Positions 1 through 37,807 of a stretch of 64,000 bases of DNA are shown piece after piece. The notes beneath the pieces were generated by a model. The model ran no database searches and was not told the DNA's origin. It saw only the letters and a program-made list of their open reading frames with translations. Source of the DNA: Eledone cirrhosa (taxonomy: Eukaryota); assembly GCA_964016885.1 (NCBI GenBank), contig OZ024743.1, forward strand, positions 75,330,001 through 75,394,000, given 5' to 3'. The translations under genes and the position numbers were made by a program. Numbering within the stretch: position 1 is the first letter of the stretch; each line of letters begins with the position of its first letter.

Positions 1-1510
1 TAGCAGCTGTCGGTCAGTTAGTGGTTACTCTCACTTTGCCCCTATACACTAGCAGCTGTTGGTAAGTTAGTGGTCACTCTCACTTTGCTCCTATACACTA
101 GCAGCTGTTGGTAAGTTGGTGGTCACTCTCACTTTGCTCCTATACACTAGCAGCTGTCGGTCAGTTAGTGGTCACTCTCAGTACACTTCTATACACTAGC
201 AGCTGTTGGTAAGTTGGTGGTCACTCTCACTTTGCCCCTATACACTAGCAGCTGTCGGTCAGTTGGTGGTCACTCTCAGTTTACTCCTATACACTAGCAG
301 CTGTTGGTAAGTTGGTGGTCACTCTCTCTTTGCCCCTATACACTAGCAGCTGTCGGTCAGTTGGTGGTCACTCTCAGTTTACTCCTATACACTAGCAGCT
401 GTTGGTGGTCACTCTCAGTTTGCTCCTATACACTAGCAGCTGTTGGTGGTCACTCTCAGTTTGCTCCTATACACTAGCAGCTGTTGGTGGTCACTCTCAG
501 TTTGTTCCTATACACTAGCAGCTGTTGGTGGTCACTCTCAGTTTGCTCCTATACACTAGCAGCTGTTGGTGGTCACTCTCAGTTTGCTCCTATACACTAG
601 CAGCTGTTGGTGGTCACTCTCAGTTTACTCCTATACACTAGCAGCTGTTGGTGGTCACTCTCAGTTTGCTCCTATGCACTAACAGCTGTTGGTGGTCACT
701 CTCTGTTTACTCCTATACACTAGCAGCTGTTGGTGGTCACTCTCAGTTTGCTCCTATACACTAGCAGCTGTTGGTGGTCACTCTCAGTTTACTCCTATAC
801 ACTAGCAGCTGTTGGTGGTCACTCTCAGTTTACTCCTATACACTAGCAGCTGTTGGTGGTCACTCTCAGTTTGCTCCTATACACTAGCAGCTGTTGGTGG
901 TCACACTCTGTTTACTCCTATACACTAGCAGCTGTTGGTGGTCACTCTCAGTTTGCTCCTATACACTAGCAGCTGTTGGTGGTCACTCTCAGTTTGCTCC
1001 TATGCACTAACAGCTGTTGGTGGTCACTCTCTGTTTACTCCTATACACTAGCAGCTGTTGGTGGTCACTCTCAGTTTGCTCCTATACACTAGCAGCTGTT
1101 GGTGGTCACTCTCAGTTTGCTCCTATACACTAGCAGCTGTTGGAGGTCACTCTCAGTTTACTCCTATACACTAGCAGCTGTTGGTGGTCACTCTCAGTTT
1201 GCTCCTATGCACTAACAGCTGTTGGTGGTCACTCTCTGTTTACTCCTATACACTAGCAGCTGTTGGTGGTCACTCTCAGTTTGCTCCTATACACTAGCAG
1301 CTGTTGGTGGTCACTCTCAGTTTACTCCTATACACTAGCAGCTGTTGGTGGTCACTCTTAGTTTGCTCCTATACACTAGCAGCTGTTGGTGGTCACTCTC
1401 AGTTTGCTCCTATGCACTAACAGCAGTTGGTGGTCACTCTCAGTTTGCTCCTATGCACTAACAGCTGTTGGTGGTCACTCAGTTTGCTCCTATACACTAG
1501 CAGCTGTTGG
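1..1510. repeat. Minisatellite: 49-bp units (1-~380) switching to 41-bp units CACTAGCAGCTGTTGGTGGTCACTCTCAGTTTGCTCCTATA
   Basis: Periodicity read directly (TAGCAGC at 1 and 50; CACTAGCAGC at 431 and 472). The 49-mers carry an extra 8 bp giving TTG|GTAAGT or TCG|GTCAGT. Confidence 0.97.
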
Positions 1511-2038
1511 AAGCCAGATACCCTTTTTGACAACAACTCTTTTAGTCCCCTCTTACAAAATGCAAGAATAAGGAATACCTATTCTAAACTATTACACTGG
1601 TCAACATACTTTTTGCTGACTCATGTTTTGTTGTTGTTTTTAGCTAATTTTGAGATGCTGATTTCAAATATGGCATCCATTTCCCCTTAACACAGGTTTT
1701 CATGTTTGTCTTTCGCTCGGTTATCCCATAAACACAGGAAACATGGATATTTTGTATATACTCTCCTTGTTGGTCATAGGAAAACTTGACGCGATAGAAA
1801 AGAAAGTATTGCCATTCTTAAACTCAGTGGCCCCAAATATCTCAAGAACAGGTCTTTAAACTATGATCACCAGAAAAAGAGGCAAAATTTTGTTGACCAG
1901 TGTTGTATATACAGACAAAAATATATTTACTATATTAAGTTTATGGCTGAAACTATTAGAATATTTTAATAACAATTTCAATGTTATGCACATTATCTAT
2001 ATCACATCTAACATTGTATTGAATTATTTTCTGTTTAG

Positions 2039-2207
2039 CTATGGCCTGGTCTAACACATATGAGGCATTCCCAGCAATAATTCACCCAGATGATAGGGAT
2101 CTGTTGATGCAAAGTACTATTGAAAAATCTAAATATTCCATATTTGCATCAGCAATGAAGAATGGTGATGTCGTATTTTGGAAGGTCCACTTTCCTATAA
2201 TATGCAG
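2039..2207 (+). CDS. GTF3C4: GTF3C4-like exon (MAWSNTYEAF...KNGDVVFWKVHFPIIC)
   Basis: ctgtttag acceptor, gtaaat donor, open frame. Confidence 0.85.
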
Positions 2208-5002
2208 GTAAATGAAACTGACTTAACATTTTTTATTAACATTATTTAATACAGCATTGAGGGCGGTGGATTGGCAGTATCGGTAGAGGGTCGGACGCCA
2301 TGCTTTGCAGCATAGAGTTATGGCCCTTTATGATCTGAGTTCAAATCCCGCCGAGGTTAACTTTGCCTTTCATCCTTACGGGGTCGATAAACTAAAGTAC
2401 CAGTAATGCACTGGGATAATTGCTGGCCTTGTGCCAAAAGTAGAAATAATTATTTAATACAGCATTCAGTAATCAGAAAAAGGGAGGTAGGTGTAAAGGC
2501 CAAACTCGCTACCTTCAATTCCGTTTTCGTGCCAACCCTTACCTATAGTCATGAATCTTGGGTAATGACCGAAAGAATACGATCACAAAATGGGGTTCCT
2601 CCATAGGGTCTTTGGAGTAACGTTACTTGATAGAGTGACTAGCTTGGAGATCAGAGAGTCACTCCAGGTAGAGCTGCTACTTCTCCGAATTCAAAGATCA
2701 CAGCTCCAGAATTGCTGGACAGATTTTACTGGCAAAACCAACCTGCAGGAGACCCAAGGGTAAACTCTGAACAAGAGGGTTAGATAACATCCATGAGCTT
2801 GGCTGGTCTTGCTTGAGGATCCAGCAGGATCAGTTGGAGATAGTTGCTTCTAACAGGACCTGCTGGAAGGAGTATTAGGGGACTGCCCCTCATGATCCTC
2901 TCAGGAATAAGTGGGTGAAGAAGAAGAACATTATTTAAACTATGTACATATGTTTAGCATTGCTTTTTACTTATAAAGTTATTTTGTTTTCATTGCTAGC
3001 ATGTTGAGGATTTTTACAAAACTCCTCTATAAGAACAAGATTCTATTAGAACCAGAAATTCTATAAATATTTACTTCTACTTCTTCCTCTTTGTCACTAC
3101 TCTCCTCTTTCAACACACACACACACCCATTCTTGTTTATGTACTTTCTTCTTCTTCTTCCACTTATTCCTAAGAAGGTCATGGGGTCAGAGTCCTTAAA
3201 AACTTCTTCCAGCAAGTCCTGTCAGAACCAACCATCTCCAACTGATCCGGCTGGATCCCTAAGCTAGACAAGCCAAGCTCATGGATGTTATCCAACCACC
3301 TTACCCAGGGTCTACCCTTGGCTCTCCTACATATGTACTTTAAAAATGTAAATTCTTCTACTTTGTTGAATTCATTGAAAAACTGATTTTACATTTTTTT
3401 CCTCTTTTCTTCTTTCAGTGGAGACTGTGTATATTTGACCACAGCTTCTATACATGACAGCATTCCTACCTCTATGTCATGGTGCCCTTCACAACAAGGT
3501 AATCTATTATTGTTGTTGTTAGTAGTAGTGGTGGTGGTGTATTTGTTGTTGGTAGTGGTGTAAAGTGATCATGTAGGTATCACAACAAAAAGTACCCAGC
3601 CCACACTGTAAAGTGGTCATGTAGGTTTCACGATAAAAATCACCCAGTACACACTGTAAATGTGGTTGGTGTTAGGAAGGACATCCAGCCGTAGAACCCA
3701 AGCCAGAACCAGTTCTGTATGAGCACAACACAGTCACCTGATCTGATTTGTCTAACAATGGGACAACGCATCTAAACCATGCTAGCATGTAAAAATGGAT
3801 GTTATATGATGATGATGATGATATATCATAGGCTCCCTTCAGTTTTTGCCATGGTTTTACACCTAGAAAGTTCCCCTCCAAGGCACAAGCCTGGACATGG
3901 TGTGTTTATGGAAGACCAGCAGAGGTATACCAGTCTGCCTTCTCCACGCCACCGATGTGTACCATCTGCAGATGCTGCCACCCCTCTGCCTTGAAACCTA
4001 AGGTAGCATAATTCATGGTACATGTATGAATCATAATATGCTTTTTTTTCCTTTGTCTTTCCTATATATGTTTTTGCTGCATATATATGTGTGTATGTAT
4101 ATATATATATATATATAGCAAAGGTAAAACTATGTATACAAAACTCAAATGTATGTAGAGAATTATATATGGTAGTATCTAATTGCCACATAGTTTCAAA
4201 GTTAACTCCATGTGTTTATCTATTATATTGGTCTGAAGATGTTTATTATTCAAATAATGTAATGTGTGTACTCCCTTGAAACGTGTAAGGAATTAAAAAT
4301 GGTTTAAAAGCTTATTTTTCCATCTATATAAGATCATCATCATGATGATGATCATTGTTTAATGTCCATCTTCCACGCTAGCATGGGTTTGGACGGTAAT
4401 TTTCCCACTTGAGGCAAGATTGGTTGTCTCGCTCGTATAGGACTGTCTGGCAGGTTTTCTACGGCTGGATGCCCTTCCTAACACCAACCACATTTACAGT
4501 GTGGACTGGGAGGTTTTTACCATGTTACCTACACGGCCCCATTACAGCGTGGACTGTTATTTTTTTTGTCATGACACCTACACCACCTCATTTATTTAGG
4601 ACTGGAAGATATAGATGCATTTCAATTCAAGCACTCGATGTCATGTTATTTCTTCAAAATAAGAATGACGGATTATAATTAGAATGAGGAAAATGCAAAG
4701 CTGTAGATGTTAAAGAGTCCTTTATTAACAAAGCTGTGATACATAGTTCAATGACGATTTTGGTTACTTGGTTATTTAACCAAGGGAACAAACAATTCCA
4801 GCAAAAACATAATTTTTTGTCCGTCCCCTTGAATATAGGATTACCTTGGAAACAGAACCTTTTACTCAATGTTGCTGTCTGATGAAATCACGAGAAAATG
4901 GTTAAATAATCAAGTGACCAAGATCGTCATTGAAATATGTGTCACAGCTTTGTTAATGGACTTTTTAATTTCTATAACTTCATATTTTCCTCGTTCTATT
5001 TG

Positions 5003-5083
<81 letters not shown>

Positions 5084-8000
5084 GTAAAAGGTAAACAGAG
5101 ATAGCAACACAATCAGTACAGTATATGGAAGGGATATATTAGGTTAACACTTGATATAGCAGGAAGAGGGTCTTAACGTTTCGGATGCTAGTCCTTCATC
5201 AGATGAAAGAATGAGAGATAAGATAGATTGAGGGGACGGGCAGGTTGGAATTGGAAAAAATGTCTTTAGATAAAAATAACAGGTCCATTCATGTTGACAT
5301 CTCTTATAGGTGGCATGTCAGTCGTATTATGTTGTTGCATGTAAGTTTGATTTTTGTATTCTAAGGATATTTTTTGCTGATTATATTGACATTTTATTTT
5401 GATAATTTCAGATATGATATTAGCTGTGGGCTATTCTGATGGAATGATAAAAGTGATTCGTTTCAACTTGACTTGTGGCATTGTGTCTGACAGCGAAGAC
5501 GTCTGGGCTGATCCTGATTTAATATCTGTAAATGCTCTCAGCTGGCAATGTCTCGACATCCATCAGGTTAGAATATGATCATACAATGATTCTATTTATT
5601 TCATTAATAAACTACATTATGGCTGGGAGGATTAAGAGCTGGAAACAGACATAAAAGTGGTGGTGGTGGTCGTCGTCGTCATGGAATTCACACTTTACAA
5701 CTATAGCTATTGTGTTGTACTTTGAATAAGACAAATAACTCTATTTCACAGTGGAGTGAAAGACATCTTCTTCTTCACCCACTAATTCTTGAGAGGGTCA
5801 TGGGGGCAGAGTCCCCAAACATTCTCTCCAGAAGGTCCTGTCAGAAGCAACTTTCTCCAACTGATCCAGTTGCATCCCCAAGCAAGACCAGCCCAGCTCA
5901 TGGATGTTATCTAACCATCTTACTCGGAGTCTACCTCTGGGTCTCCTGCCAGTTGGTTTTGCCAGTAAAATCTGTTCAGCAATTCTCCAAAAGCATTGTT
6001 GTTGAAGACCTTCCTTTGCAGAAAGTTATTGAGATGTATAAAAAAATGGGGGTTAGTTCATTAGAAAGAGATCTGGGGAGTAAACTTGGAGAGATAAAAT
6101 TCCATAAGCCACTTCAATCCAATTCTGCAATCGGACATTGTCATAGAGAACAACTGGTCCTGTTCAGTTAACAGATGCTGGTAAATGTTGCAGTTGTTGG
6201 TACATTTGTTAACAGATGCTGGTAAATGTTGCAGTTGTTGGTACATTTTGTTGACTTCCTGGCAGTATTCCTCTAATATGATGACTTCACCAAGATTCAA
6301 GAAATAGTAGTTAGCCATTTCATTTGTTGATCATAAAACAATGATTATAGCCACATAATCTTCTTTTGATGCAACTTCACATCAAAATAGTGTATATATA
6401 TATATCATCATCACTGTTTAACGTCCATTTTTCCAAGCAAGCATGGGTTAGACAAATCAGATCAGATGACTATATTGCTCATACAGAACTGTTTTGGGCT
6501 AGGTTTCTATGGCTGGATATCATTCCTAACACCAACCACATTTACAGTGGACTGGGTGCTTTTTGTCATGACACCTACATGACCACTTTACAATGTGGAT
6601 TGGGTGCTTTTTATCATAGCACCTACATGACCACTTTACAATGTGGATTGGGTGCTTTTTGTCATGACACCTACACGACCACCTTACAGTGTGGATTGGG
6701 TGCTTTTTGTCATGACACCTACATGACCACTTTACAGTGTGGACTGGGTGCTTTTTGTCATGACACCTACATAATCACTTAACAGTGTGGATTGGGTGCT
6801 TTTTGTCATGACACCTACATGACCACTTTACAATGTAGATTGGGTGCTTTTTGTCATGACACCTACATGACCACTTTACAGTGTGGACTGGGTGCTTTTT
6901 ATCATAGCACCTACATGACCACCTTACAGTGTGGACTGGGTGCTTTTTGTCATGACACCTACATGACTACTTTACAGTTTAGATTGGGTGCTTTTTGTCA
7001 TGACACCTACATGACCACCTTACAGTGTGGACTGGGTGCTTTTTGTCATGACACCTACATGACCACTTTACAGTGTGGACTGGGGTGGGATGTAATGATG
7101 TAGGTGGAGTCTTAGTGTGGGAGGAGAGAATGATAGGGTTTAAGAGGTGCATACTAGATGTATGGTTCAACCCATGGGTATATGAAGGCAGGTCTTCTGT
7201 ATTAATACATAACGCCAAAGATCTCAGTACTGTGTCATAACTTTTGTGAGGTGCAATCGTGCAAGATCAGCTTTTATCATCTTACCTCAGGTCTTCCTAG
7301 TCCATAGCTTCCATCAACTTTGATCACCCTGCACCATTTTATACAATATTTATCTAATTGCTTTTTGTATGTTTCTAACTATATATATATAGTCCTACCA
7401 TACTAGGGTGGAAGTTGGACATTAAACTGTGATATAGGAGGAGTTGTAGTTTGCTTGAAGCTTTGCGTATGGTATAGAAAATTTAAAGTCTGAAGGCCAC
7501 AAAATGTAAAAAGGACAAACAAGAAAATAAGACGAAACAAGATGTTATGTGTACCTTATTTATTTATCAATCCTGAAATTTCGAGATAAAATCTCTTCTT
7601 CAGAGGGAAATAGAAGGGACTAGTCTGGTTTTGGCAAAACATGTTATACCCTGCTATTTCTCTCAGAAGAGATTTTATCTTGAAATTGCAGTCGTGGCTT
7701 TCAAACTTTTTTTTAAAATTATATATATATATATATTGTTTTCTCTTTTCAGGATCAATGGCTTTTGTTTGCCTCCAAAGATCTTTTTATAATGGCTTTT
7801 GTCTTAGACAGAGCTAAATTAACCTGTATCCAAATGGTACACATCAGAGGACAGTACAATCTTTCTTGTACAGGTAAAATATATTTGATTTATAAACATC
7901 AAACTGTTTGATAAAAAAATCACTGAAAAATCATCATTATTGCTTCTTCATGTATGTGAACTGGAATTTCAACCAAATACATTGGCTTTTTATAACATTT

Positions 8001-11000
8001 TATATGGCAAGTGTTAGGGTCTTTATGAATATTTTATATGGCTTTAGATTTGAATGGAAGATTAATTAAGCTGAGGTATGGCCATGTGGTTAAGATTGTT
8101 TAACAATCACATGGGTCTGAATTTCATGTGGCATGTTGGTCAGGTGTCTTCTACTCTAGCCTCAGGTTGACCAATGTTTTATGAAATTTGTAGATGAAAA
8201 TTGTACACTATGTATGTGTTTGTACATAGTAGCAATATATATATGTGTGTGTAAAAAATAAACAGAAATAACAAAGCACATGACACAGTAGATTGAAGAA
8301 ATATATTAGTTTAAAGCTTGAAATAACAGTAAAAGAGTCTTAATGTTTTGGATACTAGTCATTCATCAGAAGATAGAGTTAGAAATATAAGATAAAATAG
8401 GAAGATAAAGAGTGAGAAGAGAAAGGAGCGGAAAAAAATGAGAGAAAAAGATAAATATATATTCTGTATTATGGGAAAGTGGTGAGTCTTTTTGCTCTGG
8501 AGTTTCACTTGATATTTTCATCTTAGGATTTCAATGATACTTTCTCTGATGTAGAAGAGTTTATTTCCAGTTTAGCTTGTAACATCCTGTACTGCATGTA
8601 ACTGCTTTTGCAAGACATTCTTGATAAAGTACAAAACATTATCATTGCACATTAAAAATTGAAGTATTTCCTCAAACACTACAAATTTTCACAAAGATCT
8701 GTCCTTTAATAAAGATACTATCATCATCATCATCACCGTTTTACGTCCGTTCTTCCACGCTAGCATGGGTTAGACGGGTTGTCCTGTTGTGGGCAGTGTC
8801 TGGTCGGCTGACCATGCCTTGCTCATACAGGTTGAATTAACAAGTCTATTTTTAGACATTTTCTGATAAATTACGACACATCTCATCAGACCAGGTGATG
8901 TGTTGTTTCCTTGAGCAAGACACTTTATTTCACATTGCTCCAGTTTACTCAGCTGTAGAAATGAGATGATAGGACTGGGCGTTCCTATCATACCACTGTA
9001 AAGTGGTCGTGTAGGTGCCACGGCACCCAGCCCACACTGTAAAGTGGACGTATAGGTGCCATGGAAAAAAGCACCCAGCGCTCACTGTAAATGAGGGTGT
9101 TAGGAAGGACATCCAGCTGTAGAAATCAAGCCAAAATCAGTTCCCGTCCCACCCTTGCAAGCAAGGAAAAGTGGACGTAAAATGATGATGATGAAGAGTT
9201 AAATAGCATCGTTAACAATGTTTTAATTACTACTTCTACTAATTATCTTTCAGGCATGTCCTCGCGTGGTGGTACATTGGCTCTCTCGGCTTCTGATGAA
9301 AAGGTTCAACTTATAAAAGCTGCAATGAAGGATGATGGTAAATGATGACATTTCTAATTAACAGCAGTTGTTATTCTATATTTCTCAGTTATGGAATATT
9401 TTGATAGCAGCAGAGAATATTATCATCATTAGCCCAGTTAGTCCCTAATAATAATATAATAATTGTTTCTATGTTTTGGCACAAGGCCAGCAATTACCTC
9501 AGTGTATTACTGGCACTTCATTTTATCAACCCCTGTAAGGCAAAGTTAACCTCGGTGGGATTTGAACTCAGACCAAAAAGGGCCATAACTCATTGTTGCA
9601 AAGCATGGCGTCTGACCCTCAACCGATACTGCCATTCCACTGCCTTAATAATAATATAATGATATGACCCAGTTATGTTACTAAAACTAACTCTCTGAAT
9701 TAACTGGGGCCACATTCTTATAATAATAATAATAATAATGAAAATATTGTGTACAGTGCTCAGGTGCACTACAACGCATCAAAAGTGTAATGTACAAACG
9801 TCAGGAAAATGAATAGTGCATGAGTCATGATATGTGCATGTGTATGGAAGGGGGACATCAGGTGTAGTTTTGGCGAATTTCGGGAAGCATGAGGGTTTTA
9901 AAGGATGCAGTGTCTCGGCAGCTAACAACTGACGCAGGCAGTTTGTTCCATGCTTCAGCAACTCTAAGCGTGAAAAAATGTTTCCGAAAGTCATGGGAGC
10001 TGTGCTGTTTTCTGACTTTGTAGGCATGTCCACGTGTGTTAGACACATGGAGATCAAAAAGGTGCTCAGGGTTGTTGTTGGCGAGATGGTTAATAACTTT
10101 ATGGGTGTTTACCAAGTCCATTGCCAGACGTCGGAGCTTCAATGAATCCATGCCCAGGGAAGCAAGGCGTTCAGAGTATGGTAGGTGTCTGATGGAGGGT
10201 ATGCGCTTGGTTGCACGTCTCTGAACAGTTTCCAGGAGGTCAATGTTCTAAGCAAGATAGGGGTTCCAGACTGATGATCCGAATTCCAAGTGTGGTCGTA
10301 TCATAGCTGTATACAACTTTAAATAGATGGCTGGAGAGCGGCTAACAAAGGTCTTGCTGAGTGATGCCAAGACACCCTTGGCCTTCTTGACAATCTTAGA
10401 GACATGCTTTGTCCAACGCAAATCGCTGCTGACAGTAATGCCCAAGTCACGTTCACAAGAGGACTTCTTGATATCAGTGTTTTGGAGGGAGTATGTGGAT
10501 GCTGGATTTTTCCTCCCAAAATGCATGGTGGTACACTTGTCCACAGCCAGCTTCAGTTGTCAGTCTGTGATCCATTGCTGCATTGTGTCCAGGTCTGATT
10601 GTAGGAAAGAGTTATAGATTTCAGGATCTGTCCTTTTGATTTCAAGGTACAGCTTGATGTCGTCTGCATATTGCAGTACTGTGGCATTCTTTAAGTTGGC
10701 ATCTATGTCATTAATGTATGCAACAAACAAAAGGGGACCAAGAACAGATCCCTGTGGTACACCAGATGACATCTCATATGGTGAAGAATGCTGTCCTAGA
10801 ACCATGACTACCTCTTTTCGAGAATGAAGGATTTCAACCATATAAAAAGATCATCCTTCACACCTATTGCAGAGAGTTTCGCCATAAGTCTTTTGTGTGG
10901 CACAGAATTAAAAGCCTTAGCGAAGTCAAGGCAAACAACATCCACCCATGAGCCGCTGTCAGTGATCCGGGTAATGTCTTCAAGGAACTCAATAAGCCGA

Positions 11001-17000: not shown

Positions 17001-20000
17001 TGTTATTCAAAATGTTTTACATCTTTGAAATTTATTAAAACACTAAATCATTTTGATTTAAAAGTATTTTTTGTTTGTTTTTGTTTAATTCAGTTTTCAA
17101 CTACTTTATTTTTAGATGCCTCTTATCATTGGATAAGAATACACGCAAACTCATAATCATGGGAGAACATAGTTTTGATCTCGTAAGTATCTCTTTAATG
17201 AAATAAATTATTTTGTATTTAGGTTCTTACCCCGAGATTTACCTTCACAATCCCCATGCACCTTCCCGACCTAAGTCTCCAGTCCACACTGTAAAGTAGT
17301 TGTGTAGGTGTCACAACAAAAGGCACCCAGTCCACACTGTAAAGTGGTCATGTAGATGTCACTACAAAAAGAACCCAGCCCACACTGTAAATGTAGTTGG
17401 CATTAGTAAGATCACCCAGCCACAGTCACCCTGACTTCCAGGGCAAGTTCCCTCTCCCTCAATCCCAGGTGTCCTCCTTCAATTAATAATAATGACTTTT
17501 GTTATTTGTAGCATGGTCAGTCTTCTCAACCATCACTTTCATCATCCAGTTCAACATTTGCATCTAACAATAAAGAATCACTGAAGTATCTTCATACATT
17601 GCTCATGTTCAAGTTTATTCAGTCTTACATTGTCAATACCTTGATTCCACGTATCACAGAACTGGATAATTTAGGTAAGTATTCCTAGCACCTCGTCTAT
17701 AATCTTTCCTAACACCTCACCTATAATCTTTCCTAACACCTCACCTATAATCTTTCCTTACACCTCATCTATAATCTTTCCTAACACCTCACCTATAATC
17801 TTTCCTAACACCTCACCTATAATCTTTCCTAACACCTCGTCTATAATCTTTCCTAACACCTCGTCTATAATCTTTCCTAACACCTCGTCTATAATCTTTC
17901 CTAACACCTCGTCTATAATCTTTCCTAACACCTCGTCTATAATCTTTCCTAACACCTCACCTATAATCTTTCCTAACACCTCGTCTATAATCTTTCCTAA
18001 CACCTCGTCTATAATCTTTCCTAACACCTCACCTATAATCTTTCCTAACACCTCACCTATAATCTTTCCTAACACCTCGTCTATAATCTTTCCTAACACC
18101 TCACCTATAATCTTTCCTAACACCTCACCTATAATCTTTCCTAACACCTTGTCTATAATCTTTCCTAACTCCTCACCTATAATATTTCCTAACACCTCAC
18201 CTATAATCTTTCCTAACACCTCACCTATAATCTTTCCTAACACCTCACCTATAATCTTTCCTAACACCTCACCTATAATCTTTCCTAACACCTCACCTAT
18301 AATCTTTCCTAACACCTCACCTATAATCTTTCCTAACACCTCGTCTATAATCTTTCCTAACACCTCACCTATAATCTTTCCTAACACCTCACCTATAATC
18401 TTTCCTAACACCTCGTCTATAATCTTTCCTAACACCTCACCTATAATCTTTCCTAACACCTCACCTATAATCTTTCCTAACACCTCGTCTATAATCTTTC
18501 CTAACACCTCACCTATAATCTTTCCTAACACCTAACCTATAATCTTTCCTAACACCTCGTCTATAATCTTTCCTAACACCTCACCTATAATCTTTCCTAA
18601 CACCTCACCTATAATCTTTCCTAACACCTCACCTATAATCTTTCCTAACACCTCACCTATAATCTTTCCTAACACCTCACCTATAATCTTTCCTAACACC
18701 TTGTCTATAATCTTTCCTAACACCTTGTCTATAATCTTTCCTAACTCCTCACCTATAATCTTTCCTAACACCTCACCTATAATCTTTCCTAACACCTCAC
18801 CTATAATCTTTCCTAACACCTCACCTATAATCTTTCCTAACACCTCGTCTATAATCTTTCCTAACAACTCACCTATAATCTTTCCTAACACCTCACCTAT
18901 AATCTTTCCTAATACCCTGTCTATAATCTTTCCTAACTCCTCACCTATAATCTTTCCTAACACCTCACCTATAATCTTTCCTAACACCTCACCTATAATC
19001 TTTCCTAACACCTCACCTATAATCTTTCCTAACACCTCGTCTATAATCTTTCCTAACACCTCACCTATAATCTTTCCTAACACCTTGTCTATAATCTTTC
19101 CTAACACCTTGTCTATAATCTTTCCTAACACCTTGTCTATAATCTTTCCTAACTCCTCACCTATAATCTTTCCTAACACCTCACCTATAATCTTTCCTAA
19201 CACCTCACCTATAATCTTTCCTAACACCTCACCTATAATCTTTCCTAACTCCTCACCTATAATCTTTCCTAACACCTCACCTATAATCTTTCCTAACACC
19301 TTGTCTATAATCTTTCCTAACACCTTGTCTATAATCTTTCCTAACTCCTCACCTATAATCTTTCCTAACACCTCACCTATAATCTTTCCTAACACCTCAC
19401 CTATAATCTTTCCTAACACCTCACCTATAATCTTTCCTAACTCCTCACCTATAATCTTTCCTAACACCTCACCTATAATCTTTCCTAACACCTCACCTAT
19501 AATCTTTCCTAACACCTCACCTATAATCTTACCTAACACCTCACCTATAATCTTTCCTAACACCTCGTCTATAATCTTTCCTAACACCTCACCTATAATC
19601 TTTCCTAACACCTCACCTATAATCTTTCCTAATACCTTGTCTATAATCTTTCCTAACTCCTCACCAATAATCTTTCCTAACACCTCACCTATAATCTTTC
19701 CTAACACCTCACCTATAATCTTTCCTAACACCTCACCTATAATCTTTCCTAACACCTCGTCTATAATCTTTCCTAACACCTCGTCTATAATCTTTCCTAA
19801 CACCTCGTCTATAATCTTTCCTAACACCTCGTCTATAATCTTTCCTAACACCTTGTCTATAATCTTTCCTAACACCTTGTCTATAATCTTTCCTAACTCC
19901 TCACCTATAATCTTTCCTAACACCTCGTCTATAATCTTTCCTAACACCTCACCTATAATCTTTCCTAACACCTCACCTATAATCTTTCCTAACACCTCAC

Positions 20001-23000
20001 CTATAATCTTTCCTAACACCTCACCTATAATCTTTCCTAACACCTCGTCTATAATCTTTCCTAACACCTCACCTATAATCTTTCCTAACACCTCACCTAT
20101 AATCTTTCCTAATACCTTGTCTATAATCTTTCCTAACTCCTCACCTATAATCTTTCCTAACACCTCACCTATAATCTTTCCTAACACCTCACCTATAATC
20201 TTTCCTAACACCTCACCTATAATCTTTCCTAACACCTCGTCTATAATCTTTCCTAACACCTCGTCTATAATCTTTCCTAACACCTCGTCTATAATCTTTC
20301 CTAACACCTAGCCTATAATCTTTCCTAACACCTTGTCTATAATCTTTCCTAACACCTTGTCTATAATCTTTCCTAACTCCTCACCTATAATCTTTCCTAA
20401 CACCTCGTCTATAATCTTTCCTAACACCTCACCTATAATCTTTCCTAACACCTCACCTATAATCTTTCCTAACACCTCACCTATAATCTTTCCTAACACC
20501 TCGTCTATAATCTTTCCTAACACCTCGTCTATAATCTTTCCTAACACCTCACCTATAATCTTTCCTAACTCCTCACCTATAATCTTTCCTAACACCTCAC
20601 CTATAATCTTTCCTAACACCTCACCTATAATCCTTCCTAACACCTCACCTATAATCTTTCCTAACACCTCACCTATAATCTTTCCTAACACCTCACCTAT
20701 AATCTTTCCTAACACCTCGTCTATAATCTTTCTTAACACCTCGTCTATAATCTTTCCTAACACCTCACCTATAATCTTTCCTAACTCCTCACCTATAATC
20801 TTTCCTAACACCTCACCTATAATCTTTCCTAACACCTCACCTATAATCTTTCCTAACACCTCACCTATAATCTTTCCTAACACCTCGTCTATAATCTTTC
20901 CTAACACCTCACCTATAATCTTTCCTAACACCTCACCTATAATCTTTCCTAACACCTCGTCTATAATCTTTCCTAACACCTCACCTATAATCTTTCCTAA
21001 CACCTCACCTATAATCTTTCCTAACACCTCACCTATAATCTTTCCTAACACCTCACCTATAATCTTTCCTAACACCTCACCTATAATCTTTCCTAACACC
21101 TTGTCTATAATCTTTCCTAACACCTTGTCTATAATCTTTCCTAACTCCTCACCTATAATCTTTCCTAACACCTCACCTATAATCTTTCCTAACACCTCAC
21201 CTATAATCTTTCCTAACACCTCACCTATAATCTTTCCTAACACCTCGTCTATAATCTTTCCTAACAACTCACCTATAATCTTTCCTAACACCTCACCTAT
21301 AATCTTTCCTAATACCCAGTCTATAATCTTTCCTAACTCCTCACCTATAATCTTTCCTAACACCTCACCTATAATCTTTCCTAACACCTCACCTATAATC
21401 TTTCCTAACACCTCACCTATAATCTTTCCTAACACCTCGTCTATAATCTTTCCTAACACCTCACCTATAATCTTTCCTAACACCTTGTCTATAATCTTTC
21501 CTAACACCTTGTCTATAATCTTTCCTAACACCTTGTCTATAATCTTTCCTAACTCCTCACCTATAATCTTTCCTAACACCTCACCTATAATCTTTCCTAA
21601 CACCTCACCTATAATCTTTCCTAACACCTCACCTATAATCTTTCCTAACTCCTCACCTATAATCTTTCCTAACACCTCACCTATAATCTTTCCTAACACC
21701 TTGTCTATAATCTTTCCTAACACCTTGTCTATAATCTTTCCTAACTCCTCACCTATAATCTTTCCTAACACCTCACCTATAATCTTTCCTAACACCTCAC
21801 CTATAATCTTTCCTAACACCTCACCTATAATCTTTCCTAACTCCTCACCTATAATCTTTCCTAACACCTCACCTATAATCTTTCCTAACACCTCACCTAT
21901 AATCTTTCCTAACACCTCACCTATAATCTTTCCTAACACCTCACCTATAATCTTTCCTAACACCTCGTCTATAATCTTTCCTAACACCTCACCTATAATC
22001 TTTCCTAACACCTCACCTATAATCTTTCCTAATACCTTGTCTATAATCTTTCCTAACTCCTCACCTATAATCTTTCCTAACACCTCACCTATAATCTTTC
22101 CTAACACCTCACCTATAATCTTTCCTAACACCTCACCTATAATCTTTCCTAACACCTCACCTATAATCTTTCCTAACACCTCACCTATAATCTTTCCTAA
22201 CACCTTGTCTATAATCTTTCCTAACACCTTGTCTATAATCTTTCCTAACACCTTGTCTATAATCTTTCCTAACTCCTCACCTATAATCTTTCCTAACACC
22301 TCACCTATAATCTTTCCTAACACCTCACCTATAATCTTTCCTAACACCTCACCTATAATCTTTCCTAACTCCTCACCTATAATCTTTCCTAACACCTCAC
22401 CTATAATCTTTCCTAACACCTTGTCTATAATCTTTCCTAACACCTTGTCTATAATCTTTCCTAACTCCTCACCTATAATCTTTCCTAACACCTCACCTAT
22501 AATCTTTCCTAACACCTCACCTATAATCTTTCCTAACACCTCACCTATAATCTTTCCTAACTCCTCACCTATAATCTTTCCTAACACCTCACCTATAATC
22601 TTTCCTAACACCTCACCTATAATCTTTCCTAACACCTCACCTATAATCTTTCCTAACACCTCACCTATAATCTTTCCTAACACCTCGTCTATAATCTTTC
22701 CTAACACCTCACCTATAATCTTTCCTAACACCTCACCTATAATCTTTCCTAATACCTTGTCTATAATCTTTCCTAACTCCTCACCTATAATCTTTCCTAA
22801 CACCTCACCTATAATCTTTCCTAACACCTCACCTATAATCTTTCCTAACACCTCACCTATAATCTTTCCTAACACCTCGTCTATAATCTTTCCTAACACC
22901 TCGTCTATAATCTTTCCTAACACCTCGTCTATAATCTTTCCTAACACCTCGTCTATAATCTTTCCTAACACCTTGTCTATAATCTTTCCTAACACCTTGT

Positions 23001-26000
23001 CTATAATCTTTCCTAACTCCTCACCTATAATCTTTCCTAACACCTCGTCTATAATCTTTCCTAACACCTCACCTATAATCTTTCCTAACACCTCACCTAT
23101 AATCTTTCCTAACACCTCACCTATAATCTTTCCTAACACCTCACCTATAATCTTTCCTAACACCTCGTCTATAATCTTTCCTAACACCTCACCTATAATC
23201 TTTCCTAACACCTCACCTATAATCTTTCCTAATACCTTGTCTATAATCTTTCCTAACTCCTCACCTATAATCTTTCCTAACACCTCACCTATAATCTTTC
23301 CTAACACCTCACCTATAATCTTTCCTAACACCTCACCTATAATCTTTCCTAACACCTCGTCTATAATCTTTCCTAACACCTCGTCTATAATCTTTCCTAA
23401 CACCTCGTCTATAATCTTTCCTAACACCTCGCCTATAATCTTTCCTAACACCTTGTCTATAATCTTTCCTAACACCTTGTCTATAATCTTTCCTAACTCC
23501 TCACCTATAATCTTTCCTAACACCTCGTCTATAATCTTTCCTAACACCTCACCTATAATCTTTCCTAACACCTCACCTATAATCTTTCCTAACACCTCAC
23601 CTATAATCTTTCCTAACACCTCGTCTATAATCTTTCCTAACACCTCGTCTATAATCTTTCCTAACACCTCACCTATAATCTTTCCTAACTCCTCACCTAT
23701 AATCTTTCCTAACACCTCACCTATAATCTTTCCTAACACCTCACCTATAATCCTTCCTAACACCTCACCTATAATCTTTCCTAACACCTCACCTATAATC
23801 TTTCCTAACACCTCACCTATAATCTTTCCTAACACCTCGTCTATAATCTTTCTTAACACCTCGTCTATAATCTTTCCTAACACCTCACCTATAATCTTTC
23901 CTAACTCCTCACCTATAATCTTTCCTAACACCTCACCTATAATCTTTCCTAACACCTCACCTATAATCTTTCCTAACACCTCACCTATAATCTTTCCTAA
24001 CACCTCGTCTATAATCTTTCCTAACTCCTCACCTATAATCTTTCCTAACACCTCACCTATAATCTTTCCTAACACCTCACCTATAATCTTTCCTAACACC
24101 TCACCTATAATCTTTCCTAACACCTCGTCTATAATCCTTCCTAACACCTCACCTATAATCTTTCCTAACACCTCGTCTATAATCCTTCCTAACACCTCAC
24201 CTATAATCTTTACTAACACCTCGTCTATAATCTTTCCTAACTCCTCACCTATAATCTTTCCTAACACCTCACCTATAATCTTTCTTAACTCCTCGTCTAT
24301 AATCTTTCCTAACACCTCATCTATAATCTTTCCTAACACCTCGTCTATAATCCTTCCTAACACCTCGTCTATAATCTTTCCTAACACCTCACCTATAATC
24401 TTTCTTAACTCCTCGTCTATAATCTTTCCTAACACCTCATCTATAATCTTTCCTAACACCTTGTCTATAATCTTTCCTAACTCCTCACCTATAATCTTTC
24501 CTAACACCTCACCTATAATCTTTCTTAACTCCTCACCTATAATCTTTCCTAACACCTCACCTATAATCTTTCCTAACACCTCGTCTATAATCTTTCCTAA
24601 CACCTCGTCTATAATCTTTCCTAACACCTCGTCTATAATCCTTCCTAACACCTCACCTATAATCTTTCTTAACTCCTCCTTTCAGTTAGTATAATTCACA
24701 TTTAGCTACAAAATTAGTTTCGCGGATACCTGAATGCATTCATGAGTTTTATATCGAAAAATAATTATATTAAATTTATTTTCAAGCAAACAGGCTCATA
24801 ACTCTGTTTTTTAAATGACCATCACCATCAGTTTGTTCTAACAGTGACAGAGAGAAATAGTTGACTACAATATTTTTTCTGGGTTATTGCGCTTCGTTAA
24901 GAATGTGTATATTTCTTCTGTCACTCATTAGAACCCTTGAGAATACATAGTATTCTCTAAGTATACATCGGCTGTTTAGCCTAATTTGCATACTGAGCAA
25001 TGTTACTCTCTGAGACCACTAGAATAAAAGATGGTGATAGTCATCTATATCATAGCGTAATGAGGCTGTTAGTTTGCAAATGAATCAAATATTAATATTC
25101 AATATAAAACTCATATTTAGCAATTTTACTGAATTGATTCACCCCAACTTATCACAAAACTAGTTTAACTATGTGTTGTTAAAATAGAAGAAGGAAATAA
25201 AGAAAGGTGATGCACAAGACAAGTTTACACACACATCTTCACCCTCACCAGCTCTCAAACCAGTAAAATAGTTTTGCACAATTTCTGGTTTGAGAGCTAA
25301 TGAGGGTGAAGATGTGTGTGTGTAAACTTGTCTTGTACATCGATTTTATTTATTTCCTCTTCCAGTCATTTGTGTGTTCCAGTGAACTACTCCTTGTCCT
25401 CCTTCTCTTTCAATCTTTTCTATATTTCATCTGCCTGTCACCCACCTTGTGGATTGTCTCTTTGCTGACCATTAGCCGCTGGTTTCTGTCCTCTGTGGCA
25501 TTTTTGGCCATCGCTATCTTTGACAGCATTTAGCTGTTTTAACGGCTGTTTTAGCGATGAGTTGTATTCACTCAAATATACTCTCACTTTGTCTCGATCA
25601 GAGACAACATTGTTTTATATATATATATAGGGAGAGAGAGAGAGAGAGAGAGAGAGATGTAGACCATGTGAATCCAGTTTAGAATATGTGCACCATATCC
25701 CTGACATAAGAAGCTACTAAAAGGGTTAGTGTCAGGAAGGGCATCAATCAGGATGTAAAACATTGCCTCAAAAAAAACCATCCAACCCATGCCAGCATGG
25801 AAAAGTTGACAAAAACAATGATGATGATGATGATAATATTGCCTTCGGTTGAATATCTATTTAAATACATATATCTTATAAATTCCTCCTTTGATCTGTC
25901 TAACCTTTCAGAACTTCTTTTTGTCTTTTACAGAATTAAGAATTATTTCCTCAATCTGCCAATGGCTAAATGCTCGGATGTATCACTTCTCCAGATGGGA

Positions 26001-29000
26001 TTCTATTGCAGCTATGGTCAAGAAAATGCTCTCTTCTATAGAACATTCAATCATCATATTTGAGGAAGATTGTCCAATTTGTGGAGAACATATCCTTTTA
26101 TCCTGTTAAAACAACAAAGAAAAGTTATTTTACAAAATCTTCAACATCATCATCATTGAATGTCCATTTTTCAACCCTTGTTAGTAAGGAAAATTAACAT
26201 TAAATTATGATTGTGATGGCTAGATCAACACAGAACATGTCATTACTTAACCGTTTCTGTTCAAACTGGCTGTAACTGGCCACTCATACTGATGTCAAGG
26301 TATTGTTCTCAAAATAAATAATACCAAAATCTCATAGATTTGATATTATGTGAGATAAAGCCTTTACTGTGAAAATATAATAGTATATATAGAGTAATGT
26401 AAATTCTAAAGGGTTAATGAAAGTGTGGAAGAATGGACGTAAAACGGTGATGATGATGATGAGACTGGCCTCTTAGACAAGGTGGGGAGTGGGGACTATC
26501 TCACATATGTTCCCACACTTTAGACAATGCACTGGGTGTATTTTATTATGACTAAGACTGTTGTCATATATTAGATATGACTGATAAATCCTCCCAACCC
26601 ATTGATTTCTATATTTACATTATATGTAGGGACCCATAACACTTGAAGGAGTCATAGGGGCACCATATTCACATACAACATTTCTAGGGTTTTATAAAAC
26701 CTGGCGGAGCCCATCTCCTCTCCAGGATATTTATATTAGGAACATCTAACTAATGTTAAATTAATGGGTTGGTAGAAATAATTGTTTCTATTTTTGGCAC
26801 AAGGCCAGCAATTATCCAGTGTAATACTGGTACTTTATTTTATCGACCCCGTAAGGATGAAAGGCAAAGTTAACCTCGGCGGGATTTGAACTCAGAATGG
26901 AAAGGGCCGTAACTCTTTGCATCAAAGAATGGCATCCGACCCTCTACCGATACTGCCAATCCACCACCTAGAAATAATAGTGACAGATTCTATATGTTCA
27001 ACACAGCAGCTACATGTTGGAAGAAGGCTCGTGGTAAGCCCTGCACCAGATGACTGGATGTCATCAGGGTAGATCTCCAGAAGCTCGACATCACTTTGGA
27101 GGATGTAGAGGGGCTGGCACGGGAACTCCAGTGATGGAGGGCACTGGTGGACCTGGTCGACTTTACACCTGATGATGCCTCTAGGATCACTGACCTACGA
27201 TGACCCTAGTCTCATCAAGCAAGAGCAAGAAGATTCTCTATGTACATAACCTGTTGTTTTATGAATGGAATATGGTGCTGCCCCAGCATGGCACCAGCCT
27301 GTCTGCTGGAACATGTAATAGAGTAATATAGAATAACTGATATTCAGTTTCTTTATCAAACATTAACAAAGTCAATTATATAGGTACAGGCTTCATACAA
27401 TTCTGTCAACCCAACACCATCGTCATTTTTTTATTTTGCGTTCCAACCGAGAGGCTGAGGCCATGCTGGGGCATTGGTACATTAATTTATCAAACTCAAT
27501 GAAGGACAAAGTTGAGTTTGACAGAATTTCAGAGAGAAGAAGACCGAAATAAATACTGCAAGGCATTTTGTCCTACATTCTAAAAATAGTCATGAATTTG
27601 GGGTAATAACCAAAAGAATACGATTACAAATACAAGCAGCCGAAATAGGGTCCATCTGAAGGGTCTTTAGAGTAATGTTACTCAATGAAGTGCGTAGCTC
27701 GGAGATCAGAGAATCACTCCAAGTAGAACCACTATTTCACAGATTTGGGTGATCACAGCTCCGATACTATAGGCATATTGTTAGAATGTCTCGGGGAAAG
27801 AATCACTCACGGATTTTACGGTCAAAACCAACCGGTAGGAGACTCAGGGGTAGACCCCAAACAAAATGGTTGGATAACATCTATGTGCTTGGTTGGTCTT
27901 GCTTGGTGATCCAGTTGGATCTGTTGGAGACGGTTGCTTCTGACAGGACCCTATGGAGGGAGTGCTTGAGGACTCTGTCCCCACAACTCTCTCAGGAACA
28001 AGTGGGCAGAAAAGAGGATTCTAAAAATTTTGGCAACAGTTTTACCTATTATATATGCTTAAAAGCAGCTTAAAGTTATTCTTAAATTTGAATTGTAGTT
28101 TTTTATTTATAACATAATATAATTGCTAAATGTTAATGGACATTGTTGAAGAGTTAGAAAGATTTGTTGAAAGATATACAATATGAAAAGTGACGAATTG
28201 GCAGAGTTTTTAGAACATTGGAGAGAATACTTTATAGTATTTGTTTTTGCTCTCTGAGTTCGAATCTTGCTGAGGTCAACTTTGCCTTTCATCCTTTCAA
28301 GGTCGATAAAAAAAGTACCAGTCTAGTACTGGGGTCGATTCTTCCTCTATATCTCTTTCTCACTTCCTCTCTCACCCTCTCTATCCTTCTCTGGAAGAAA
28401 TCTGCTGTATTCAGGACTGAATAGGGATGGTCTCCACCAGGTTTTAAAATGCCCTAGAAACGCTGTATGTCAATATGATACCCCTACAACTCCCTCGGGA
28501 GTTACAGGTAAAAATGAAAAAGAAAGAAGATACAATATGGAGACATGCTAACAAAGTGACCAAATCAACAGCTGTGATATTTTGTTATTTATTATTGTAA
28601 ACTATATTCAGTATTTAACCCTTTAGCATTTAAACCAAACATATCCGGCCAGAATCCTCTTACCTCTTTCTGTTCAAACCAGCTGTAACTGGCCGCTCAT
28701 ACTGATATTAAGCTATTCTCAAAATAAATATCATCAAAATCTCATAGATTTGATATTATGTGAGATAAAGTTTTTACCACAAAAATGTAATAGTAAATAT
28801 AGAGTAATGTGAATGCTAAAGGGTTAAACCAGTGATGTCATGGCAGTTACTTTAAAATGTTGAATTGTTCCTTAACTATTTTACTTCTTGAAGATGTGGA
28901 TGTTATGTCAGTAGCCTGTTCTGGAAACCATACATTTGGTAAGTGTTTTCTCTCTTGAAGATATGTGTGTGTGTGTGTGTGTGTGTGTGACAGCTCACAC

Positions 29001-30542
29001 CTATGGAGGTTTAGCTGGACTCCTCCAAGGTATATATCTCGTTGGAGGTGTCTTGGGTGATTTAATGATAGGGACCCCAGTCCTATCATCTCATTTCTAC
29101 AGCTGAGTAAATTGGAGCATCTTGAAGATATATATATATATATATCATCATCATCGTTATGACAGCCGTTTTTCCATGCTTGCATGAGTTGGACGAGTTA
29201 CCAAATCTGGTAACCATGTCTTGCTCATACAGAACTGATTCTTGCTTGGTTTCTACAGCTGGATACCCTTCCTAACACCAACCACATTTACAATATGTAC
29301 TGGGGTCTTTTTGTCGTGAAACCTACATGACCATTTTACAGTATTGACTGGGCACGTTTTGCCGAGATGCCTACATGACCACATTTCTCATGAAATACAT
29401 TCTATTTTAATTAATTTATGAAGAATTTTTAGGGATTTTCTAAAATTCTTAATTATTTTGCTACTAAGATAGTAACTTAATGTAAGGTTCTTATATAAAA
29501 TTATGTTGGACGATTTTAATTTTAATTTGGGTGGCTTTATTTCATTGAATCCAGACCTGGTTTTGGCCAGGCTGGTAAATAAAGAGTTTAAATGATGATA
29601 TATATGTTGACTGTTGACCATTTCATTGTTACTGTTATAGTTTAGTATTCATGAAAAGTTGGCTGCAGTAAACTAAAGTTTATCAATTTATCCTAATTTC
29701 TATTACAGGTCGATGTTGTAAATCTTTACTTCCTTGTAAGGAGATACCTTATCGCAGATGTTCCCTCTGTAGTAGTGTCGCCATGCCTGTAGCTGTAACT
29801 ACTGGTAACTATATATCTATCCTTCTAACTACTGTTAACTATATACCTATCTTTTAACTACCTCTAACTATATACCTATCTTCTAACTACTGCCAACTAT
29901 ATACCTATCCTTTTAACTACCTCTAACTATATACTTAAACTTTTAACTGCCTTTCATCATTTCAGTCTTTCTGTTTATTTCTGTTTCAGAATCTTGCTTT
30001 ATGCTCTTGGATTTCAAATTTCATATTTTTTTCTTGTTAAATATACCATACACTGTGGTTGGTGTTAGGAAGGGCATCCAGCTGTAAACAAACAGCCAAA
30101 ATCCATGTTGTGCAAATCTGATTAAGGGACACCCATTGCTTCCTGGGAAGTTCAAAGCCAGCTGGTTTAGATGTGGTGTCCTGGACGAGGTCTTGGTTGG
30201 CAAATTTGGACTCATTCCATGATCTTTGCCATTCTTCCTTCAGATCAAAATTATTGTCTTGAATTGTCTTCATTGATTCAAGTGCATGTTGGGAAGGTTT
30301 TCCAGGAATGTCGGGCTTGGACCTGGTAAGAAGTGCTGCCTCACTAGGAGATGGCTACTTTCATGTGGTCCACTCTGTACGGAATCCATTTCAACTAATG
30401 CCATTGTTCGATATATGCACAACTCACACAATCAACTTGATTTGTTGACAATGACAAAGTAAATTTATTACACTACCAGCAACATCCTTTAACCTCTATC
30501 ATTTGACTTTCTAAAAATGAGGGGAATAAAGAATTAAATTAG

Positions 30543-31131: not shown

Positions 31132-31233
31132 TCTACTCACTCCTCCATCTATGATAAATCCATTTACCATTTAGTAATCTCAACAAAAAACATCAGTCAC
31201 TGTAATTCAGTACTTTAATATTTTATGGCTGAA

Positions 31234-31239
31234 AATAAA
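31234..31239 (+). terminator. Probable polyadenylation signal of the GTF3C4-like gene
   Basis: AATAAA ~100 nt after the stop, followed by T-rich sequence. Confidence 0.5.
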
Positions 31240-35915: not shown

Positions 35916-37807
35916 TAATATATGCATACGTATATATATGTGTGTGTATAAGTAGATATATATATATATATTTATATGTGTATGTATATTTATGCGTTTA
36001 TTGAGTACGTGTATGTGATTGTGTGTATTTGTATTTCCATGTAGACGTACATGGTTTCCGTACTATTACGTATATGCGTGAGTTTGTGTATGTTTATGTA
36101 TTTGGATATTTATATATCTTTTTTCCCCTCAATTTATGCCCGTTATTTTATTTCAGCCTCACTTTCATTTCTCCTAAACTCTGTTTTCAAATCCATATCC
36201 CTATTCCATTTTAATAAATTCATTTTAATAAAGGCAGACATAAGTATCAAGCTCATCTGTCTTCAAGAAACCATTGGTAAATGAATTAATTATCTTATGT
36301 TGTTTATTACATAACTAAATATATATATATATATATATATAGTAATAATCATTACCAAAATCTGAAGAGTGCTCAATAAGGATTGTATATATATATATAT
36401 AATAAAAAAAGTATATATAAACCTGTAGAGTAAATATTTATTATTAGTACAGATTAAAGTTTAAGCAAAGAATTTCACCCTATTACGGGATCTTCTGAAA
36501 GCAGAAATTCCTTGCTTAAACTTTAATCTGTACTAATAATAAATATATATATATATATCATCCTCATCACCGTTTAACATCCATTTTTCCACACTAGCAT
36601 CGGTTAGACAAGTTGTCCTTTTGTGAGACTAGCCAGGTCAGGTAATCATGTTTTGCTGATACAGAACTAATTTTTGCTTGATATCTACAGTCGGATGCCC
36701 TTCGTAACACCAACCACTTTACAATGTGTGCTAGGTGCTTTTTGTCGTGACACCTACATGACCACTTTACAATGTAGGCTGGGCCCTTTTTGTCATGTCG
36801 CCATCACAACCACAGTGTGGGCTGGAGGCTACACTAGATGTATGCTATAGTCTGTCCTCATGAGAGATATATTGTATGCATCACCCCCATCCATATGTAT
36901 GCTATAGCTTCAGCCTGTGCTCATGGGAAGGCGGGTCTTCTGTATTACTACATAATGCCAGAAATCCCGGTCCTGTGTCATTGTCTTTGAGACATGCTTT
37001 TATCATATATATATATATTTCTATATAACTGTGAACAACCTTTTAAGAGATATTTGTTTCTACTTTAGGCACAAGGCCAGCAATTACCCAGTGCATTACT
37101 GGTACTTTATTTTATTGACCCCGTAAGGATGAAAGGCAAAGTCAACCTCGGCGGGATTTGAACTCAGATAGTAAAGGGACGTAACTATGCTGGAAAACAT
37201 GGCATCCGACCCTCTACCGATACTGCCAATCCACCGCCCTTTTAAGAGATATTGTAACCTAATTACTTAGGATTTACAACTTCCTCACAGAATGTTATAA
37301 TTTGTCTAACACTCACTTCCTCCCTTACTTTCGAAGTATCAATCATCCCCCACAACACTTCCTATCCCATATTCTCTTTTCTAATATTTGTGTCACCTAT
37401 TTATAACATAACTCTTAACATCTTTTAATGATTTGGCAGAAAATATTTAAAATCGAATTTGTTAATTCAAATTATAGTATCTTTACTAGTGGACAAATCA
37501 ATATAAACATTCTCAGTATTAAAGTAATGACTTCAATGTTTAATGTGATGCAATAATTTTATACTTTTCAAGAATGTTTTGCTGGTGCTGTTCCATTTGG
37601 TACCAGACATTAAGAGTTACTCCAAACTAAACATCTATCAATAATAACCTCTTACACATTCAGGACTACGGTTTTGACATTTCAGTATTAATTAACATTA
37701 AATCTGTCCAACCCTTGCTAGGAGGGAAAATGGATGTTAAATCATGAAACTCAAACATTGCTCATCTGAAAACAACAAAAAGTAATTTTTTTTTTCTTTA
37801 GTAAAAT

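Follow-up and report, generated by a model that had tools for sequence, protein, structure and literature searches.

Why do three minisatellites of a single gene all begin at, or directly beside, a 5' splice site? The window, that is the whole stretch of 64,000 nucleotides analysed here (contig C4, 75,330,001–75,394,000), contains such a case, with three arrays called (c), (a) and (b) in the order of the gene, and the first-pass annotation had proposed that splicing itself gives birth to repeats of this kind. The explanation that we favour, with a probability of about 0.76, is that arrays (b) and (c) span the exon/intron junction and array (a) lies just behind its donor, that all three arose by ordinary local tandem duplication, and that they persist by means of splicing that likely uses the first donor.

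The gene that carries the arrays is GTF3C4 of the octopus type, with 19 exons, 18 introns and an open frame of 725 amino acids, and its model was built on the window together with 30 kb of upstream sequence (the genome has a size of 3.0 Gb). The majority of the residues (701 of 725) are identical to GTF3C4 of O. bimaculoides, corresponding to 97% versus the Octopus orthologs, and the predicted protein shows 93% identity to that of Argonauta and 82% to that of cuttlefish. The alignment to the Octopus proteins is gap-free at every exon junction of the model. TFIIIC delta and zinc-finger Pfam domains are present in the ortholog; a Pfam search with single exons of the gene gave weak matches (best E 0.005), and the identity was taken from the ortholog comparison instead. 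Arrays (c), (a) and (b) are located at the donors of introns 5, 15 and 18, which are all authentic according to the ortholog alignment and a spliced contig, and together the arrays constitute 24% of the 43-kb gene. No junction array is found at any of the donors or acceptors of exons 7–14 (3419..17182). Intron 16 is of the AT-AC type with a U12-type donor and a U12-type branch site, and no paper on a U12 intron in GTF3C4 was found in the open-access literature.

Table. Exons of the GTF3C4 model and minisatellite arrays, in window coordinates.
Feature	Position	Strand	Remarks
Array (c), distal half	1..1510	+	full array from window -1582 to 1510, 3.1 kb, 68 units
Exon 6	2039..2207	+	spliced to the authentic array (c) donor; model and ortholog alignment
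Exons 7–10	3419–3498, 5412–5566, 7753–7873, 9254–9337	+	model and ortholog alignment
Exons 11–14	12717–12877, 15488–15551, 16313–16460, 17116–17182	+	model and ortholog alignment
Exon 15	17512..17674	+	donor TAG/GTAAGT at 17675
Array (a)	17682..24678	+	291 units of 24 nt, start at intron position +8
Exon 16	25934..26089	+	followed by AT-AC (U12-type) intron 26090–28884
Exon 17	28885..28938	+	model and ortholog alignment
Exon 18	29709..29804	+	donor CTG/GTAACT at 29805
Array (b)	29796..29952	+	5 units of 29–30 nt and a 9-nt end piece
Exon 19 (last, with 3' UTR)	31049..31255	+	end is the reach of the spliced contig

Array (b) in intron 18 is the smallest of the three, and its first unit consists of the last 9 nt of exon 18 followed by the donor. 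The first-pass annotation had described it as beginning within the exon, with later copies that do not contain the GT, and this description holds: the start is 9 nt inside exon 18, and the five later copies read TT, CT, CC, CT and TT at the donor position, so that the G is absent in all five. Among the first 24 columns of the unit six are variable, and four of these fall at -2 to +2 of the junction; counted as events, the junction changes amount to about three out of eight (P about 0.08). The exon-18 tail and the donor have a short repeat in common, 10 nt apart, which judged from the sequence could have been the seed of slippage. In one DNA contig, from run X2, 58 nt of the array are missing, indicating either a shorter allele or a collapse in the contig.

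Array (c) in intron 5 reaches into the window from the upstream side. Its start lies 1.58 kb before the window, about 24 nt from the end of exon 5 on the exon side, and the authentic intron-5 donor, at C4:75,328,441 (window -1559), is likewise outside the window on that side. An earlier alternative donor in exon 5 was considered and ruled out, with the ortholog alignment and the contig favouring the later one. The proximal part contains 41 long units, mostly of 49 nt, each made up of exon-5 tail, donor and intron head, and the distal part contains 27 units of 41 or 39 nt that have lost 8 nt at the donor. Among the 67 copies, 27 carry an identical TTG/GTAAGT, one a stronger site (TAG/GTAAGT), one GTAAAT and 11 GTCAGT, which make up the 40 copies of the proximal part, and 27 show the 8-nt loss; a GT is retained in 66 of the 67 and the full GTAAGT in 28. 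The intact copies are those nearest to the authentic donor, and each of the first four decoys, which were the ones tested, would lead to a premature stop if used. In the long units the variation is spread over 17 of the 49 columns and never touches +1 or +2. The lost 8 nt sit between two copies of TTGGT, the arrangement that slippage predicts, and the loss has a plain explanation in microhomology. The first-pass annotation had noted TTG/GTAAGT in the proximal units of the array at 1–1510, and over the full array the identical copies number 27. Its further statement that the donor is inactivated in the copies applies to (b) and to the distal part of (c), but for array (c) as a whole it fails, with GT in 66 of 67 copies and the 27 identical sites of the proximal part left intact.

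Array (a) in intron 15 is different, as it begins 7 nt behind the donor at 17675. When the first 24 intron bases are aligned to the array unit, 16 of 17 positions match from +8 onwards, and over the donor itself only three of seven match (chance of at least three: 0.34). Neither GTA nor GTG is present in any of the 291 units. In an alternative alignment, where the unit is read as nine exon bases joined to the intron head with the donor deleted, six of seven positions match at -9 (chance 0.13). From these alignments array (a) was probably born at +8 and never included the donor. The donor at 17675 is thus real, as had been claimed, but the array can be said to abut it and not demonstrably to contain it. 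Taken over the three arrays, the idea of amplified exon/donor junctions therefore stands for (b) and (c), both of them locus-specific, and array (a) starts behind its donor and probably never held it.

A 2304-nt spliced contig of run X4 bears on which donors are used. It aligns to exons 4, 5, 16 and 19 only, and in it exon 5 stops at the first donor. The record position of this end, 1726, equals 207 + 1518 + 1, where 207 + 1518 is the sum of the predicted lengths of exons 6–19. Since the contig fits the summed exons exactly, the first donor is used at (c), (a) and (b), and the contig confirms this use, as well as splicing of the AT-AC intron, for the dominant transcript of run X4. The run is without label and no run is recorded as RNA; it was treated as RNA because of the spliced contig. 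It is a single run and, as it shares its study with the DNA runs, not independent of them, and contigs drop rare forms. X4 has no cover over the first copies of array (c) (L002:8342–8480), and rare or stop-carrying products of decoy use would escape view there; given the premature stops, transcripts using a decoy could be degraded and so be unseen. Sequence behind a first donor that is used is intron, and therefore expansion "only into the intron" is automatic. The extension in this direction only, noted in the first-pass annotation, follows from the geometry.

The arrays might in principle be assembly expansions, or genome-wide repeat families that were inserted beside donors, a reading to which we give hardly any credence. 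It could point to an 11-nt piece of the array (a) unit, which occurs 34 times outside the array in 294 kb, within a common dispersed element, and to weak matches (74–79%) of array (b) at six other loci. Genome searches with the units of arrays (a) and (c) gave 131 and 43 matches respectively, all of them inside the own array, with the reservation that common words can be missed in such searches. Two of the six loci matched by array (b) were inspected and contain low-complexity arrays unrelated to it, and a dispersed family was ruled out for (b) on these grounds. For (b) and (c) the reading is refuted by the exon-tail sequence in the units, which encodes residues conserved in other cephalopods. 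In a DNA run the unit of array (c) has a depth of 127 versus about 7 for the flank, and the units are heterogeneous with a higher-order structure. Dispersed families at unrelated loci, the outcome that the first-pass annotation itself regarded as fatal to its proposal, are thus not what was found: all three arrays are locus-specific.

For a view of the rest of the genome, exons of six Pfam families (myosin, kinase, kinesin, dynein AAA, HECT and DEAD) were collected together with their flanks. Out of 508 family matches 456 were placed (52 were not fetched), from which 376 donors and 361 acceptors were called in 1.19 Mb; the counts omit exon ends that lie at the border of a domain model or that received no splice-site call. 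The splice-site calls are heuristic, and the donor weight matrix was made from approximate metazoan frequencies. Arrays were counted if they had a period of at least 10, were non-simple, matched fewer than three other loci and started at -40 to +8 of a donor. At the 376 donors three locus-specific array starts were observed versus 3.04 expected from the intronic background (upper 95% ratio 2.9), and a sample of this kind, from conserved-domain genes with flanks of about 1.5 kb, can exclude enrichments of more than about 3-fold only. One of the three arrays includes exon bases, and arrays longer than 300 bp are found at none of the sampled donors, among 58 listed. The 361 acceptors have three rows versus 2.92 expected, all representing one event in paralogous kinesin genes, and when arrays that had been set apart are added the counts become 4 versus 5.4 expected at donors and 3 versus 5.2 at acceptors.

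A more sensitive scan for duplications, based on 14-mers in unique sequence, covered 364 donors and 351 acceptors. Within exons (-40 to -14) duplications are depleted, with 2 versus 12.7 expected at donors and 3 versus 11.9 at acceptors; across the junction (-13 to +1) they are at or below background, with 4 versus 6.8 and 2 versus 6.5; and just within the intron (+2 to +15) they are at background, with 5 versus 4.1 and 4 versus 2.3 respectively. The pattern is symmetrical between donors and acceptors. Between 16 and 50 nt behind donors 17 duplications are found versus 10.2 expected (P = 0.03, uncorrected, in one of 14 bins). Six of the donor duplications in the sample include the junction, and all of them keep the GT, although the detection favours such cases. 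A search for the first 8 nt of the next exon behind the copies of the three GTF3C4 arrays gave a best match of 5–6 out of 8 in each; no copy is followed by a next-exon head, the signature that a spliced-RNA template would leave. An mRNA-templated origin was ruled out for this reason.

Against these counts stands the density of arrays in GTF3C4 itself. With arrays at three of its 18 donors versus three of the 376 sampled, Fisher's test gives P = 0.0015, a comparison made post hoc. From the array density, at least three arrays in an 18-donor gene have a Poisson probability of 0.0005–0.001, and two kb-size donor arrays in one gene a P of about 0.0004. Assuming a few thousand intron-rich genes, which is a rough estimate, a few genes with three donor arrays are expected per genome, and the version with two kb-size donor arrays is expected less than once on the same gene count. 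Arrays at three donors out of 18 make the gene a real outlier, judged post hoc, if of a kind that is expected a few times per genome. The 294 kb around the gene contain nine locus-specific arrays of at least 1 kb, and an open frame resembling an exon precedes only (a) and (c) among the screened candidates. A strong regional hot spot was ruled out, the array density being 0.22 per kb versus 0.165 per kb in the sample. The gene has a fourth array, a 3.4-kb 54-mer in intron 1, which was ruled out as a junction array as it starts 991 nt from the donor and has a weak GT only. The ends of arrays (b) and (c), and that of one sampled myosin array (L021), lie no more than about 2 nt from the junction phase, which was noticed post hoc, and the end of array (a) is not at the junction phase.

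In the explanation that we favour, a piece of 24–49 nt that happens to touch or straddle the exon end would have been duplicated between short direct repeats, through slippage in replication or through unequal exchange. The exon would still be defined by the first donor, so that the mRNA would be unchanged and the extra copies would be intronic by construction. Growth and turnover would then proceed as in many kb-size minisatellites of this genome, and the unit variant that happens to be amplified, with or without donor, would spread. Three such events in one 18-intron gene would be an extreme but random outcome, noticed because oddities were what was looked for. The first-pass annotation had instead proposed that repeats are repeatedly seeded at 5' splice sites throughout the genome by a splicing-linked process that could add to intron inflation, and had tied this to an excess of array starts at donors. 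There is no such excess in the sample, where donors have 3 versus 3.04 and acceptors are equal, no array above 300 bp is at a donor among the 58 listed, and duplications across the junction do not exceed the background. The proposal is largely refuted for an enrichment of more than 3-fold, and altogether we consider it very improbable in spite of the local cluster, the quarter or so (24%) of GTF3C4 taken up by the arrays and the small, uncorrected excess at 16–50 nt. The null result of the sample argues against splice sites as a source of intron-inflating repeats in this 3-Gb genome. A narrower alternative, which we regard as unlikely, is a predisposition specific to the gene or its context, where R-loops or the free 5'-exon intermediate, for instance, would direct breaks or template switches preferentially to the 5' splice junction. 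It would account for three arrays, two of them of kb size, at 18 donors, for the shared junction phase of (b), (c) and the myosin array, and for the position at the junction of both the deletion in (c) and the variable columns of (b), and in the available text on amphioxus Adh3 the mirage units of 10–72 bp suggest several repeats in one gene (PMC3087553). All of these points are post hoc, however; array (a) is out of phase and possibly lacks the donor, the gene's fourth large array lies away from a donor, the long units of (c) vary at positions spread over the unit that leave +1 and +2 untouched, no copy is followed by next-exon sequence, and the deletion in (c) is plainly explained by microhomology. 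That a splicing-coupled, gene-specific mutational route exists but is too rare to show in an average over 376 donors seems improbable to us. If true, a gene-specific effect of junction phase would connect splicing with mutation and merit attention.

Selection can also be invoked for the loss of donors. Under this alternative the arrays were born neutrally and selection against decoy donors then chose which unit was amplified, giving the donor-less (a), (b) and distal (c); it is compatible with ordinary duplication as a second-order effect, and we find it doubtful, if worth keeping in mind. All 291 units of (a) and five copies of (b) are without donor, array (a) can be read as nine exon bases and intron head with the donor deleted, and decoy use in (c) would create premature stops. 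But the intact copies of (c) are nearest to the real donor and should compete most, and yet 27 of them are identical and one is stronger, a gradient that runs the other way from the one expected under purging. The donor losses trace to very few founding events, about one each in (a) and (c) and about three out of eight events in (b), with the P of about 0.08 given above, and in the available part of a study of human F7 the pseudo-sites are described as functional yet non-competing (PMC1557585). The claim of the first-pass annotation that decoy donors are selected against is contradicted by the 27 identical decoys in (c).

Arrays (b) and (c) are junction-spanning minisatellites of the kind known from human F7 and from the amphioxus mirages, with a first unit over the authentic boundary, a locus-specific sequence and splicing at the authentic site. 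Splice-site sequence is reiterated in the intron by array (c), and the copies of (a) and (b) are without donor. Neither a report of junction-spanning minisatellites from a cephalopod nor a genome-wide test of donor enrichment for such arrays was found in the open-access literature, and the available part of the spl-TR paper (PMC10078293) contains no donor-overlap test. The extension of such minisatellites to a cephalopod is a modest addition. In the available text on microhomology-mediated tandem duplication, with the Haber-Louis model as cited there, repeats are described as arising where short direct repeats flank a unique sequence, as neutral for the most part and as depleted from coding regions (PMC13167724). 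The depletion from exons in our sample, the partial units flanking (a) and (b) and the deletion in (c) are in line with this. In contrast to the present case, introns and splicing are mentioned zero times in the available part of that paper, and the distal end of (c) may be truncated, hiding the founding microhomology.

The mirages of amphioxus, in the accessible text of the report, are minisatellite-like tandem duplications of exon-intron boundaries, both 5' and 3', in the Adh3 and globin genes, with splice signals kept in many, but not all, units and with splicing unaffected (PMC3087553). These are likewise boundary minisatellites of an invertebrate, and our genome sample also contains a case on the acceptor side; the differences are that the host here is a mollusc and not a chordate, and that the arrays reach 3–7 kb. 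The 37-bp VNTR in intron 7 of human F7, listed beside IFI6 (6-16), CBS IVS13, LMNB2 and PDGF (Borensztajn et al. 2006, PMC1557585), has, according to the part of that paper available, a first unit across the exon/intron boundary and identical donor copies in the intron, and splicing there uses the most upstream donor; the copies number 4–8 in F7 and 25 in 6-16. Array (b) resembles it in geometry, and array (c) in its boundary, its donor copies and the use of the first donor. Unlike the F7 case, three donor-proximal arrays occur here in one gene, GTF3C4, and first-donor use is known from one assembled contig, as against mutational tests in F7. Array (c) is also larger, with 67 copies, 27 identical decoys and a distal domain without donor, and with these decoys spaced by roughly 49 nt it constitutes a natural test of first-donor choice.

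Four arrays together occupy about 32% of GTF3C4, namely the donor-proximal arrays (a), (b) and (c) in introns 15, 18 and 5, and a 54-mer array in intron 1 that starts 991 nt past the donor. In array (b), one DNA contig of run X2 lacks 58 nt, corresponding to two units (window 29822–29879), and this shorter form is possibly a second allele. An 11-nt piece of the unit of array (a) (window 17706–17716) is also present 34 times outside the array in 294 kb, within a very common dispersed element, and the match might be due either to chance or to a decayed element at the head of the intron. The dispersed 48-nt tandem family is located within one common interspersed element, and its copy number varies from 2 to 11.5 among the insertions. 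A putative Gypsy-type coding region lies immediately upstream of the GTF3C4 promoter.

Features in and around GTF3C4, and junction duplications in the genome sample (L002 and L003, sequence pieces upstream of the window; other L numbers, sampled loci; C numbers, contigs; negative positions, upstream of the window)
Feature	Position	Strand	Basis or remark
54-mer array, GTF3C4 intron 1	L003:8982 to L002:2493 = window -10818 to -7407		3.4 kb, locus-specific
GTF3C4 intron 16, AT-AC	window 26090-28884		ortholog alignment and spliced contig (2304 nt, run X4)
Dispersed 48-nt tandem family	window 3559-3666, 6535-7084, 15941-16225, 17279-17397, 29287-29381, 36706-36813, 53726-53820
Putative Gypsy-type retroelement coding region	L003:130-3480	-	inspection by eye
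Gene with leucine-rich repeats (LRR)	window 38345-39085; additional likely exons near 40185-40340, 43690-43770	-	weak Pfam LRR matches
Ribosomal protein L31 reading frame, intronless, intact	window 47954-48319	+	Pfam L31e, E 4e-39
Acceptor-side junction array	L084, L087, L088, L082		kinesin paralogs on C1636, C18, C22
Donor-spanning duplications, short or old	L021 (C3 myosin), L199 (C2 kinase), L012, L014, L180, L280

Intron 16 of GTF3C4 begins with the U12-type donor ATATCCTTT and contains a U12-type branch site, TTCCTTAAC, with the AC 8 nt downstream; one literature search for a minor intron in this gene yielded no publication. The LRR gene is arranged tail to tail with GTF3C4, and neither of the arrays near it (40845–41081 and 44532–44649) is at any of its apparent donors. 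The L31 frame could be either a retrocopy or a functional intronless gene.

Junction duplications are also found elsewhere in the genome sample. The acceptor-side array is common to paralogous kinesin genes, and its 120-nt unit, present in 2–4 copies, includes a complete acceptor and 16 exon bases. All six donor-spanning duplications retain the GT in the copy, and the kinase locus appears to carry multiple degenerate copies of the exon tail.
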